From Gemmatimonadales bacterium (GTDB lineage Bacteria > Gemmatimonadota > Gemmatimonadetes > Gemmatimonadales > GWC2-71-9), in contig JBBQFH010000003.1 in NCBI GenBank assembly GCA_038321865.1, positions 64,001 through 128,000 of the forward strand: a DNA stretch of 64,000 bases. The letters are read 5' to 3'. Numbering within the stretch: the first letter of the stretch is position 1; each line of letters opens with the position of its first letter. The position numbers and the translations under genes are program-made. Positions 27,950 through 33,292 of this stretch are shown piece by piece. The notes beneath the pieces were generated by a model. The model was given only the letters and a program-made list of their open reading frames with translations, ran no database searches and was not told the DNA's origin.

Positions 27950-27957
27950 GCCGCATC
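27950..27957 (+). repeat. Left target-site duplication gccgcatc
   Basis: Identical to 31899-31906 (match extends to 10 bp, cggccgcatc). Confidence 0.85.
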
Positions 27958-27975
27958 GGTGATGGTACAGTTTGA
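27958..27975 (+). repeat. Left terminal inverted repeat GGTGATGGTACAGTTTGA
   Basis: 15/18 match to the reverse complement of 31881-31898; begins GGTGATG like IS1 ends. Confidence 0.85.
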
Positions 27976-28012
27976 ATTCGCGGCCCCTAGCCGGAAGTGC
28001 TAACTTAGGGGT

Positions 28013-28228
28013 ATGAGCAAGAAAGCCACGCCCGCCCGGCCCCGCGATACGAACCAGCTGGCCGCGTTCGTCGGCGGGATCGCCACGGAGCAGCGGGAGG
28101 AGCCAGAGGCGCCGGAGACGGCCCCAGGCGCCCGTAAGCGGGGCGAGGCGAGGGCGGCGAAGCTCAGCCCGGAGGAACGGAAGCGCATCGCCCAGAAGGC
28201 GGCGAGGGTCCGCTGGGCGAAGGAGTAA
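28013..28228 (+). CDS. Small basic IS-associated protein
   Basis: RPRD.NQLA...IAT...ARAAKLSPEERKRIAQKAARVRW; TGcTAACTT -10 lies 6 nt upstream. Confidence 0.75.
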   Translation: MSKKATPARPRDTNQLAAFVGGIATEQREEPEAPETAPGARKRGEARAAKLSPEERKRIAQKAARVRWAKE

Positions 28229-28340
28229 CACAGCAACCGCGCCCCGATGGTCTGGGGCGCCGCGCTCGGGAACATCAGCAGTTAGCTAGTGTTTTTTCAT
28301 CTACCACCTCGGCTGTGCCTCCTGGCACGGTTGGGGTCCA

Positions 28341-28385
28341 GAGCGGCCAGAGACGCCTTACTAGGGGCGTTGTCTCTGGCCGTTC
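28341..28385. terminator. Long hairpin between convergent passenger genes
   Basis: GAGCGGCCAGAGAC (28341-28354) pairs with GTCTCTGGCCGTTC (28372-28385), plus an inner stem. Confidence 0.55.
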
Positions 28386-28390
28386 GCCTT

Positions 28391-29050
28391 TCAAGCCTCA
28401 GGCGCGCTTCCGAGCAAGATGCGTTCGATGCGGTCATAGAGCCGCTCACTGGCCTCCGGGTCCTCCATCGCCTCCGCTCGCTTCATCAGGAACTCGACGT
28501 ACCTGTTGCGAGCATCCTGCATCGCGTTCTCGGCGTCGCCACCTCCCGCGGCGCCGTCATCCTCTGTGCCGTTGTTGGCGCGTCGCGCGCCCCGCCGCGC
28601 GAAGCCAGTGGGGACCTTAAAGTTCTTACTGACAGCAACGCCCGCGAACTTCGCCGCGTGAAGGTAGAACGTCATGGCCTTGCGCAGCGTGTCCCCAGCT
28701 AGCCCCTTGAAAGTCTCTGCAAGCTGGTTCGTGGTGCCGTTGATAGTGCCCAGTCGAACCGCCTCGCCGTAGTGCGTTTCAAGTAGCCCCTTTATCACTC
28801 GCCCCCGGTCCTTCTCGTTGTTCACCAGCTCCTGAAAAATCGGCGTCACTTCGCCACCTGGCTTGATTAGGCCGAAGAACTTCAGCGCCGCCAATACCTG
28901 CGTCTTTTGGCCCTCCGAGCCCCCGAGGGCGCTCCGGTCAATCCGAGGTGGGACGGCGCCCTTGAACTTGTCCAAGACATTCAGGACGGTTCTAAACGAG
29001 GTGTACGGCCAAGTCACCGCGTTCGGCTCCTGCGTGCGCTCTTCAGCCAT
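28391..29050 (-). CDS. DUF5343-like protein
   Basis: PY.SF.T..N.L....VP.RIDRS.L......Q...ALKF.GLI...G..T pattern; GGAGG SD upstream of ATG 29050. Confidence 0.65.
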   Translation of the reverse strand: MAEERTQEPNAVTWPYTSFRTVLNVLDKFKGAVPPRIDRSALGGSEGQKTQVLAALKFFGLIKPGGEVTPIFQELVNNEKDRGRVIKGLLETHYGEAVRLGTINGTTNQLAETFKGLAGDTLRKAMTFYLHAAKFAGVAVSKNFKVPTGFARRGARRANNGTEDDGAAGGGDAENAMQDARNRYVEFLMKRAEAMEDPEASERLYDRIERILLGSAPEA

Positions 29051-29202
29051 AACAAACCCTCCATCGGGCACGGGATACGGGCAGCATCGATAAGAGACAG
29101 GATAGCGATTGAATACCACGCCGTCAATGGTACGGACGAAATTTGGTGGTACGACGTAGGGGCGCTATTTTGGTACTCCACTGCTGCATTGGAGGTTTTT
29201 GT

Positions 29203-29418
29203 ATGCGCGAAGTGAAGGCAGGACAATCAGTTACAGTGACAACAGCCGACAATCGGGCAGTCAAGCGGAGAGCCATTAGCGGCGTCGTCAACGGCGACGA
29301 TTTCCCAGTGATCTGGGTTTGCGACGACACGGAATACGCTGTCGCGAAGCGGGAAGGCCGCTTACCGATAGGTGTTCCGTGGCCTTCGGATTGCGTTCGG
29401 TCGAATGATACCACTTGA
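29203..29418 (+). CDS. Small hypothetical protein (71 aa)
   Basis: GGAGG SD at 29191-29195; MREVKAGQSVTVTTAD...VIWVC...EY..A..EGR.P.GVPWP. Confidence 0.6.
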   Translation: MREVKAGQSVTVTTADNRAVKRRAISGVVNGDDFPVIWVCDDTEYAVAKREGRLPIGVPWPSDCVRSNDTT

Positions 29419-29443
29419 CAGACGGGCAGTAGTCAAGCATATT
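29415..29443 (+). promoter_or_regulatory. Sigma70-type promoter for the transposase-methyltransferase pair
   Basis: TTGACA (29415-29420), 17-bp spacer, CATATT (29438-29443). Confidence 0.55.
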
Positions 29444-29486
29444 CGTTCAGTTAGAGTTTACCATAGTAAACCGCTGAGCGAGCCAA

Positions 29487-30350
29487 ATGAACCGCCTGAG
29501 CACCGAACGTCGCACCCAGATTCTTGCCGCCCTCTGCGAAGGTGCATCGGTGAGCGCCGCCGCGCGCCAGAGCGGCGCGTCCAAGGTGACGGTCCTCAAG
29601 TTGTTGGCCGAGGTCGGGCAGGTGTGCCTAGATTACCAACGCGCGACGCTGGTTGATCTGCCGTGCAAGACGATTCAGGCCGACGAAATTTGGTCGTTTA
29701 TCGCCTGTAAGGAGCGCAACGTTCCCCGTGATGAAAAGGGCCGTGGTCGCGGGGACTGCTGGACCTGGACGGCGCTGTGCGCCGATACGAAGCTGGTTCC
29801 CTGCTGGCACCTCGGCACGCGCGATGCCGATGCCGCCAAGCTATTCATGGAGGATTTGGCATCGCGTCTCGCGACCCGCGTTCAACTCACGACAGATGGC
29901 CACCGCGCCTATCTGTCCGCCGTGGAAAAGGCGTTTGGGTGGAACGGTGTGGACTACGCGATGCTAGTCAAACTCTACGGTGCACCGGAGGGGTCAGGCG
30001 TACGTCGGTACAGCCCGCCCGAAATTCTCGGCATTGAGCGGCATTGGGTGATGGGGCAGCCAGAGGAGAAGCTCGTTTCGACGAGCTACGCCGAACGACA
30101 GAACCTGACCATGCGCATGAACGTGCGACGGCTGACGCGGCTGACCAACGGCTTCTCCAAGAAGATCGAGAACCATGGGCACGCGATGGCGCTGTATTTC
30201 ATGCACTACAATTTTTGCCGGAAGCACGAGACGCTGACCAAGGCGAAGGGTGGCGTCCACACGACCCCGGCGATGGCCGCTGGCGTCGCGGATCGCGTCT
30301 GGAAGATCGCCGATATTGTTGCCCTGCTGGAAGCCAAGGAGACCGCATGA
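29487..30350 (+). CDS. IS1-family DDE transposase (single ORF, N-terminal HTH)
   Basis: ADEIWSFI, TTDG, STSYAERQNLTMRM and RLTNGFSKK motifs; C-terminal TPAMAAG. Confidence 0.9.
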   Translation: MNRLSTERRTQILAALCEGASVSAAARQSGASKVTVLKLLAEVGQVCLDYQRATLVDLPCKTIQADEIWSFIACKERNVPRDEKGRGRGDCWTWTALCADTKLVPCWHLGTRDADAAKLFMEDLASRLATRVQLTTDGHRAYLSAVEKAFGWNGVDYAMLVKLYGAPEGSGVRRYSPPEILGIERHWVMGQPEEKLVSTSYAERQNLTMRMNVRRLTRLTNGFSKKIENHGHAMALYFMHYNFCRKHETLTKAKGGVHTTPAMAAGVADRVWKIADIVALLEAKETA

Positions 30351-31879
30351 CGCGTCGCCCGTCGTCCGTGGTTGATACGCGCGTTATCTACTGCGGGGAC
30401 TGCTTGGAGCGGCTACGGACGCTGCCGGATGCGTGCGTGGACCTGATCTACATCGACCCGCCGTTTAACTCCAATCGCAATTACGAGGTGTTTTGGGGCG
30501 AGACAAAGGAGAAGCGCGCGTTTGACGACCGTCACGCGAGCACCCAGGCGTACATCGACTACATGCGCCCTAGGTGCGTCGAGATGGCCCGCGTGCTGAA
30601 ACAGACCGGCAGCTTCTATTACCACTGTGACTGGCACGCTTCGCACTACGTGAAGGTCATGCTCGACCAGATTCTCGGCGAGGACAACTTTCTAAACGAG
30701 ATCATCTGGCAACGCTCCGATACTCACAACGACGCTAAGAATCAATTTCCGGTTGTGAGTGATTCCATCTTCCTGTACGGCGGGGGCGGCAATCACTTCT
30801 TTCAACCGCAGTACACCGACTATCCCGAAAAGACGTTGCGCGAGTGGTACTTATGGCTAGACCTGCCCGACGGCACAACGCGGCGCATGACTGAGATAGA
30901 GTGCAAGACGCAGGAAATACCTCCAGGCGCGCGACGATTCAACACGGGTGACATGACCAGTCCTAACCCGCGTCCGAATCTCATGTACGAGTACAAGGGA
31001 TATTCGTACCCGGCGAAGGGCTGGCGATACTCGCGTGAGACGATGGCAGAGCTTGACGCGAAAGGCTTGTTGTTGTTTCCGGCCGAGAAAACAGGTCGGA
31101 TCATGCGCAAGCGGTATCTCGATGAACAAAAGGGGCCGATGCTGGGGAATGTGTGGACCGACATTGACCAGTTGCGTGCGAACGACGCCGAGCGGCTCGG
31201 ATATCCCACTCAGAAGCCGCTAGCTCTGCTCGACCGAATCATTCAGGCGAGCAGCAAGCCGAACGATATCGTGATTGACGCCTTCTGCGGCTGCGGGACG
31301 GCGCTAGTCTCGGCCCAACTGCTCAAGCGTCAATGGATCGGCATAGACATCTCTCCAACCGCGTGCCGCGTCATGGCCAAGCGCTTGCGGGATGTATGCG
31401 AGTTGCGCGAGGATGAATCCCTGTGGCGAGCTGGGCGGGGGCTTGTTGTCCGTGACCTGCCGTGGAGCGAGGACCAGCTGCGGAAGCTGCCGCCTTTTGA
31501 GTTTGAGAATTGGGCCGTGATCGCGCTCGGCGGGATTCCAAACAAGGCGCAGGTCGGCGACATGGGGATTGACGGGCGGATTTATCCGGTTTCAGCGGTC
31601 CCGGCCAAGGCCGACACGAAAGACCCGGCTTTCGATTTCATGGATATTTGGTACCCGATCCAGGTCAAGCAGCGCGACAAGGTGGGACGGCCCGACATCG
31701 ACTCCTTTGAAGCTGTCATGACGCGCACCGACCGGACCAAGGGCTTCTTTGTGTCCTTCGCCTTTTCACGGGATGCGCTGGCCGAGATCGACGCCTTTTT
31801 TCGCAAGTCTGGAAAGGTCATTATCCCCCTGACCGTCCGCGAAATCCTAGACGAGCAACTGGCCGCGAAACTCGCCTAG
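30347..31879 (+). CDS. N6-A/N4-C DNA methyltransferase fused to a C-terminal Mrr-like endonuclease domain
   Basis: DLIYIDPPF precedes YPTQKP and DAFCGCGT (beta-class order); tail FEFENW...GDMGIDG...QVKQ...GFFVSF. Confidence 0.85.
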   Translation: MTRRPSSVVDTRVIYCGDCLERLRTLPDACVDLIYIDPPFNSNRNYEVFWGETKEKRAFDDRHASTQAYIDYMRPRCVEMARVLKQTGSFYYHCDWHASHYVKVMLDQILGEDNFLNEIIWQRSDTHNDAKNQFPVVSDSIFLYGGGGNHFFQPQYTDYPEKTLREWYLWLDLPDGTTRRMTEIECKTQEIPPGARRFNTGDMTSPNPRPNLMYEYKGYSYPAKGWRYSRETMAELDAKGLLLFPAEKTGRIMRKRYLDEQKGPMLGNVWTDIDQLRANDAERLGYPTQKPLALLDRIIQASSKPNDIVIDAFCGCGTALVSAQLLKRQWIGIDISPTACRVMAKRLRDVCELREDESLWRAGRGLVVRDLPWSEDQLRKLPPFEFENWAVIALGGIPNKAQVGDMGIDGRIYPVSAVPAKADTKDPAFDFMDIWYPIQVKQRDKVGRPDIDSFEAVMTRTDRTKGFFVSFAFSRDALAEIDAFFRKSGKVIIPLTVREILDEQLAAKLA

Positions 31880-31880
31880 C

Positions 31881-31898
31881 TCAAACTGTACCAGTACG
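31881..31898 (-). repeat. Right terminal inverted repeat TCAAACTGTACCAGTACG
   Basis: TCAAACTGTACCA is the exact reverse complement of 27963-27975. Confidence 0.85.
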
Positions 31899-31906
31899 GC
31901 CGCATC
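31899..31906 (+). repeat. Right target-site duplication gccgcatc
   Basis: Identical to 27950-27957. Confidence 0.85.
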
Positions 31907-31951
31907 CCATCGCTTGCTCTCGATGTCCAACCCGTTTAACATTCAGGGCTT

Positions 31952-33292
<1,341 letters not shown>

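Follow-up and report, generated by a model that had tools for sequence, protein, structure and literature searches.

The sequence studied here is a stretch of 64,000 nucleotides (the window) from a Gemmatimonadales bacterium (GCA_038321865.1, contig JBBQFH010000003.1, positions 64,001 to 128,000), and positions 27958-31898 of it form a 3,941-bp single-transposase element of the IS1 family, with inverted ends, a target-site duplication and five open reading frames (ORFs), directly upstream of the predicted promoter of the host gene ffh. It is an unremarkable representative of a large clade that has been little described, and the register in which this clade inserts relative to promoters is robust. 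The features of the locus are as follows.

27950..27957, no strand: left target-site duplication GCCGCATC, 8 bp
27958..27975, + strand: left inverted repeat (IRL) GGTGATGGTACAGTTTGA, fitting the clade consensus GGTAGTGGnnCAGTTTGA, profile score 20.6 (range 14.2-31.1)
28001-28006, + strand: -10-like TAACTT before the 71-aa core gene
28013..28228, + strand: 71-aa basic core gene ('histone H1' by automatic annotation), with homologues in related elements
28391..29050, - strand: cargo, DUF5343-like protein, 219 aa, helical N-domain and C-terminal helical hairpin
29099..29127, - strand: sigma70 promoter predicted for the DUF5343-like gene, TTGACG-17-TATCCT, consensus match only
29203..29418, + strand: 71-aa cargo protein, companion of the DUF5343-like gene, homologues in L110, L120 and L121
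29415..29443, + strand: promoter predicted for the transposase gene, TTGACA-17-CATATT, conserved across the Gemmatimonadota clade
29487..30350, + strand: IS1-family DDE transposase, 287 aa, single ORF, N-terminal three-helix helix-turn-helix (HTH), no zinc finger, D66/D137/E203
30347..31879, + strand: cargo, N6/N4 DNA methyltransferase with C-terminal Mrr-like nuclease domain, 510 aa, DPPF and DAFCGCGT motifs
31881..31898, - strand: right inverted repeat (IRR) TCAAACTGTACCAGTACG, terminal C where the consensus has G
31899..31906, no strand: right target-site duplication GCCGCATC, 8 bp
31914..31942, + strand: host target, predicted ffh promoter, -35 TTGCTC (31914-31919), 17-bp spacer, -10 TAACAT (31937-31942)

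The ORFs, the ends and the 8-bp duplication lie where a preliminary description of the sequence had placed them, and its picture of an IS1-family transporter with one transposase and cargo on both of its sides was borne out. The two ends are complementary at 15 of 18 positions, including a perfect 13-bp core, and the genome search with this core that had been proposed found exactly two occurrences in the 3.4-Mb genome, both at this element. The GC content of 60.0% (69.8% and 67.9% in the 5-kb flanks) agrees with the AT-richness claimed for the insert, and the transposase, described as sitting about 1.5 kb from each end, has 1,530 bp between it and the left end and 1,551 bp between it and the right end. 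Contigs from run X1 (perhaps the source sample) read through both junctions without differences. A duplication of 9 or 10 bp, with CGGCCGCATC repeated on both sides, was considered and dropped in favour of 8 bp, because both ends then stay in register with the clade consensus. The ends were not among the top 25 of 189 pairs returned by a generic repeat finder. That the element is probably intact, as had been suggested, holds for the transposase and not for the right end: the left end begins GG, as do 194 of the 196 ends of 98 clade elements (see below), but the right end, with its terminal C, begins CG, which leaves the mobility of the window copy uncertain, and this copy may be impaired.

DUF445 and ffh are directly adjacent, with the element absent, in three of five congeners (G002, G003, G004); in G005 about 0.65 kb of other DNA with no element end lies between them, and in G001 the region is split across contigs. 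An exact empty allele that rejoins at a single GCCGCATC was not found among the congeners, whose spacers are too diverged to demonstrate it. One X1 contig joins 27927 to 31928 through 26 other letters; given these differing letters it comes from a relative and not from a direct ancestor.

Related loci were collected from matches to the transposase, taking the 80 best among 184 in genomes and the 80 best among at least 486 in metagenomes (160 fetched), to which we added the window element and a second element from its own genome (C15). Paired ends together with a duplication, searched only at lengths of 8-10 bp, were present at 98 loci ("bounded" elements), many others being cut by contig ends; removal of 14 same-site duplicates and of one locus with a short flank left 83 distinct sites. 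An unbiased search for inverted repeats with duplications placed ends of the consensus type GGTAGTGGnnCAGTTTGA around 59 of 82 related transposases, while the reversed-flank control gave matches for 4 of 82 and none with the consensus. The duplication was 8 bp at 78 of the distinct sites and 9 bp at 5, with no consensus among the duplicated sequences themselves. Bounded elements measure 1,968-6,572 bp (median 2,965).

What the preliminary description left out, and what proved to be the most informative feature of the locus, is a fixed position relative to the ffh promoter. In the window the predicted -35 box starts after a gap of 7 bp from the duplication, with the ffh ATG at 31952, and the three empty congener alleles retain both the TTGCT and the -10 box; a generic promoter scan did not call this promoter (8/12 matches, below the scan threshold). 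Across the clade, TTG stands at position 8 past the duplication at 36 of the 83 distinct sites, the window included (20 right and 17 left flanks), whereas other offsets average 2.4 and never exceed 6. This position-8 TTG is followed after 16-18 bp by TAnnnT in 22 of 37 cases, as against 9 of 115 for the remaining TTGs of those flanks (Fisher p 3.5e-10). Even at the 47 sites without it, TAnnnT reaches its highest counts at position 31 (10 flanks) and position 32 (7 flanks), no other position exceeding 4; direct reading of a TTG does not account for these in-register boxes. A held-out set of 21 regions yielded 10 bounded elements and, after removal of one duplicate, 9 sites, four of which carry the position-8 TTG, with at most one at any other offset. 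The 7-bp gap is retained at 5 of 8 sites with 9-bp duplications, so the cut on the promoter side is the fixed one.

The register also recurs at the same gene in other elements. L118, which has a transposase of 74% identity, carries other cargo and points the opposite way, lies 7 bp from the -35 box of an ffh gene. L005, of which only the right end is available, is at an ffh promoter too, one base further out. In a quick version of the transposase tree, promoter-type sites spread across the entire tree and several phyla. A small basic protein encoded near the left end was considered as a promoter adaptor, an idea that found no support: promoter-type sites occur both with the gene (23 of 56 elements) and without it (14 of 27; p 0.48). 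The small core gene is not required for the promoter register; many elements that lack it have a different small gene in its position.

One promoter is a recurrent hot spot. Elements of 2.1-3.1 kb and of different lengths (L129, L132, L133, L135, L136, L148) occupy the same orthologous promoter of strong consensus, and at L148 another element end seemingly abuts the site. As to the sigma factors of the host, the most conserved sigma70-type factor found in its genome (C2:161003-161869, L193) has only 289 aa, and a long RpoD did not turn up in the assembly, which is incomplete. A complex prediction of the transposase with region 4 of the host sigma factor scored 0.01, which we count neither for nor against a contact.

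A second target class was seen, besides one further shared site. Six bounded elements from Solirubrobacterales bins (L029, L038, L039, L040, L048, L052), and three more loci of which one side is available (L020, L050, L173), lie beside a dif-like 11-6-11 motif, at a distance of 5 bp from its XerC-side arm; its other arm resembles the XerD consensus TTATGTTAAAT of PMC10132070. The motif is single-copy in all five genomes tested, and the transposases concerned fall in one clade of 7 rows, 6 of them of the dif type (support 100, quick tree). Four loci of alphaproteobacterial type (L025, L031, L183, L190) share one site, apparently inside a promoter spacer and beside a GAAC-N7-GAAC motif, which starts 7 bp past the duplication in the three of them that are bounded. 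We take this motif to resemble the alphaproteobacterial LexA box.

The elements of this clade move as bounded units, copies of which stand at many different sites. By analogy with the IS1 family, a single DDE transposase would bind both 18-bp ends, move all DNA between them and duplicate 8 bp of the target. The core consists of the left end, the small basic gene, the transposase with its own promoter and the right end, and two slots to the left and right of the transposase hold the cargo, which is variable and may be exchanged by recombination between copies. Statistically, the cut on the promoter side lies 7 bp before a -35 box of the sigma70 type, whichever way the element is oriented, and this fixed upstream position suggests that the transcription machinery is used to find a harmless landing spot. 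We propose that the transposase-DNA complex docks on or against the promoter-bound RNA polymerase holoenzyme, through sigma region 4 or the alpha C-terminal domain, and we hold it rather probable that such docking steers the insertion of these cargo-carrying IS1-family elements. The element would then land in intergenic DNA and spare the -35 and -10 boxes, and could therefore sit beside housekeeping genes such as ffh and spread cargo of the restriction or toxin-antitoxin type at low cost. The wider picture, to which we give somewhat less than an even chance, is that of an IS1-family clade acting as a promoter-homing shuttle for defence cargo that docks on the holoenzyme, has converged on the 15-bp geometry of TnGBS elements (compared below), and has been re-targeted in one sub-clade to XerCD-bound dif.

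The strongest competitor, which we nevertheless regard as unlikely, is that the transposase itself reads the target DNA, recognising either a TTG that lies 7 bp beyond the cut or a bent upstream edge of the promoter, without any protein contact, real promoters being enriched by selection for intergenic sites. The -35 box, some 12-14 bp from the target centre, would be within reach of the transpososome, the signal is symmetric (24 right and 13 left among the 37 scoring sites), and the use of a dif-like motif by one sub-clade implies that the family is able to shift specificity. What speaks for docking instead is the -10 box, which lies some 35 bp away from the middle of the target: it shows in-register enrichment even at sites lacking TTG, and it follows the position-8 TTG far more often than other TTGs. 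The dif-type sites could also be read more generally, with insertion guided to the neighbourhood of whatever protein complex is stably bound to DNA, be it RNA polymerase, XerCD at dif or perhaps LexA; a DNA distortion at the edge of the complex could be the cue. The six bounded elements beside a single-copy dif-like motif and the shared site of the four alphaproteobacterial-type loci fit such a rule, but dif-type sites are confined to one well-supported clade, for which a clade-specific adaptor surface is the better fit, and no further recurring motif was seen among the sites; we consider this explanation improbable.

That insertion is nearly random and the pattern arises from the survival of insertions sparing genes and promoters has hardly any probability left. 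Most examined sites are intergenic and about half lack the motif, as expected if survival alone were at work, but the distances form a single-base peak, with 37 of the 83 sites at offset 7, 8 at offset 8 and at most 6 elsewhere, and insertions of opposite orientation share the register at ffh. Selection tolerates any distance upstream of a -35 box and therefore cannot yield a single-base peak, so this explanation is largely refuted. Several observations nonetheless weigh against docking on promoters as a general account. The position-8 TTG is missing at 47 of the 83 sites, and 46 of 83 score below the promoter threshold; the C15 element sits inside a kinase-like coding sequence, and the dif-adjacent sub-clade is among the sites that do not fit. 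All promoters are predictions from sequence, surviving insertions are filtered by selection, and related transposases are not independent, so that the p-values given above overstate the case. Finally, the window copy is single in its own genome and has a non-consensus terminal base, so that its present activity is uncertain.

The transposase matches PF03400 (28.4 bits, cut-off 24.1), and its best NCBIfam match is NF033558 with 52 bits (E 7.6e-14), below the cut-off of 100; Transposase_mut (PF00872, Mutator family) gave no match at E 0.05. Among 137 aligned sequences, D66 is kept in 136 and D137 and E203 in all 137; the window protein matches every column conserved to at least 90% in this alignment, bar one inserted residue. 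Its structural model (pLDDT 93) consists of three N-terminal helices and an RNase H-like DDE core and resembles DDE transposases and integrases, the best match being ISCth4 (Z 13.4, 16% identity), because the DDE core is shared; a search of PDB sequences with the transposase profile found no relative. The closest transposases come from Gemmatimonadaceae bins, and in four of five plasmids with homologues covering most of the query these are annotated as "IS1 family transposase". In the 5' leader (window 29444-29486), a GTTCAG...CTGAGC pairing is conserved in Gemmatimonadota relatives and possibly forms a translation-limiting hairpin. A relic of 22 codons with 77% identity to the transposase lies within a phage-like region of the same genome (C34:24229-24289).

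At E 1e-60 the transposase family turned up in 19 genomes among 301 from the phylum, and hosts of the clade are mostly Gemmatimonadota, Acidobacteriota, Verrucomicrobiota, Chloroflexota and others. As the preliminary description had proposed, homologous transposases were tabulated, and many of them lie between matching ends of the consensus type with variable cargo. At least 684 bp of DNA lie to the left of the transposase at all 83 sites and at least 250 bp to its right at 56; the layout with passengers on both sides, noted earlier for the window element, is real but not rare, 18 of the 83 elements having at least 1 kb on both sides.

The 71-aa ORF at the left end is a conserved core gene rather than cargo, with a full-length homologue in 56 of 83 elements, within at most 100 bp of the left end in 43. 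The gene is probably leaderless, and its product might be a regulator or an accessory DNA-binding protein; it has an atlas score of 0.92 to a "Histone H1 family" cluster, and a Mesorhizobium plasmid shows the same gene order around it. Its C-terminal motif recurs at the N-terminus of P63C-domain cargo proteins in L018, L034, L035, L036, L047, L071 and the C15 element; L056 was grouped with these elements as well, although no match to the motif is found in it. In Acidobacteriota loci such as L051, L064, L072 and L073, a different small gene, belonging to a 13-element cluster, replaces the basic core gene at the left end.

Of the actual cargo, the DUF5343-like protein, a probable DNA-binding protein, has no direct Pfam match; 83 of 130 aligned homologues match PF17278, its atlas score is 0.94, and 1,665 relatives were found at E 0.001. 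Its model shows a weak fold likeness to the recognition domains of FokI, N.BspD6I and BrxA (Z 6-6.9), which we treat only as a lead, and had no Foldseek match at E 0.001. A full-text literature search, with most subscription journals outside its reach, returned nothing on DUF5343. The 71-aa cargo gene stands beside the DUF5343-like gene in L110 and L120 too. On the right, the start of the methyltransferase gene overlaps the transposase stop (ATGA). The protein matches PF01555 (E 1.6e-44) and MTase_II of PADLOC (E 7e-62), with intact methyltransferase motifs, and its Mrr-like tail scores 19.6 bits against PF04471, just below the cut-off of 21, with the E..GID..QVK residues present; PADLOC had no match for the other four ORFs of the element. 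L110 and L120 carry the left pair without the right-hand methyltransferase, and the right cargo recurs in a genome of the congener family (G016) and more distantly in L151, L035 and L114. This mosaic points to exchange slot by slot.

Among 56 elements, 149 of 172 candidate cargo ORFs were compared with Pfam (the 23 shortest omitted): 40 elements had a match, and in 23 of them a domain of toxin-antitoxin, restriction-modification, nuclease or STAND type was present, the domains being PIN, NYN, YhaV, HigB, Gp49, Panacea, Fic, HTH-M78, GmrSD, methyltransferases and AAA. P63C, DUF3800 and SDH proteases also recur. The defence cargo postulated earlier agrees with the methyltransferase and its Mrr-like tail as well as with many relatives, and is unproven for the DUF5343-like and 71-aa genes. 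The second element of the same genome (C15:19330-24517; 5,188 bp, 47% transposase identity, 9-bp duplication) has different cargo, labelled by inspection and homologues as an adenine methyltransferase and nuclease-like pair, a P63C-type protein and a Panacea-like gene.

A single-base register upstream of sigma70-type promoters in several phyla would make this clade a second, independent bacterial case of promoter-directed transposition, of interest to transposition specialists. With its compact single-protein transposase it would be easy to test, and comparison would make the RNA polymerase-contact model of TnGBS testable as well. The switch from promoters to dif within one family amounts to a natural domain-swap experiment; if our interpretation is true, a small scaffold of 287 aa carries a swappable surface for targeting by host factors. 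The variable slots offer candidate defence genes, and the insertion geometry might serve as a safe-harbour integration tool or for inferring promoters in uncultured phyla.

The window element belongs to the IS1 family in a broad sense and is a transporter IS (tIS). With the family it shares a DDE transposase matching PF03400, ends that begin GGT and a duplication of 8-9 bp, while the transposase differs in having neither a zinc finger nor an insA/insB frameshift and in scoring below the NCBIfam cut-off for IS1. Canonical IS1 of the E. coli type is about 0.8 kb long, with an insA/insB frameshift and an N-terminal zinc finger, in contrast to the 3.9 kb and the single 287-aa ORF starting with three helices found here. 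A close counterpart is the single-ORF branch of IS1 with passengers, whose ISMhu11 subgroup is said to have been described by Siguier et al. in 2009. IS1-family elements are usually regarded as loosely AT-preferring, and the conserved small basic core gene and the fixed-register targeting of promoters set the present clade apart. We found no report of promoter targeting by IS1-family elements in the full-text literature, a search outside which most subscription journals, ISfinder, TnPedia and supplements fall, and the accessible part of bioRxiv 10.1101/2025.07.22.666184 contains neither "IS1" nor "promoter" as whole words. The tIS are defined by passenger genes (PMC9330008) inside one pair of IS ends, and the window element is likewise built of one transposase with its passengers within one pair of ends.

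Parallels for the targeting come from other families. ISAjo2 of the IS1202 family keeps a 5-bp spacing from the XerC-side arm of dif (PMC10132070), as does the Solirubrobacterales sub-clade but not the window element; its transposase is of another family, and the sub-clade has duplications of 8 bp rather than 5 bp and uses both orientations. The retrotransposon Ty3 targets Pol III promoters bound by TFIIIB, an analogy drawn in PMC3942029, and shares position-specific integration upstream of a transcription initiation complex; it differs as a eukaryotic retroelement whose protein contact has been shown, while that of the window clade is inferred. The closest parallel in geometry is TnGBS/ISLre2 (p-MULT3), which inserts 15-17 bp upstream of sigmaA -35 boxes, contact with RNA polymerase having been proposed, and with which some Mutator-like ISKra4 elements (p-MULT4) are grouped for their promoter-upstream insertion (PMC3942029). 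The distance from the window element to the -35 box, 8 + 7 = 15 bp, falls within this range, and both orientations are likewise used when the two ends are near-identical (PMC3942029). The window transposase nonetheless matches PF03400 and not the Mutator profile PF00872, conjugation genes are absent from the element, and the clade lives mostly in Gemmatimonadota, Acidobacteriota and other phyla rather than in streptococci. The window element thus works like TnGBS/ISLre2 without being a member of that group.

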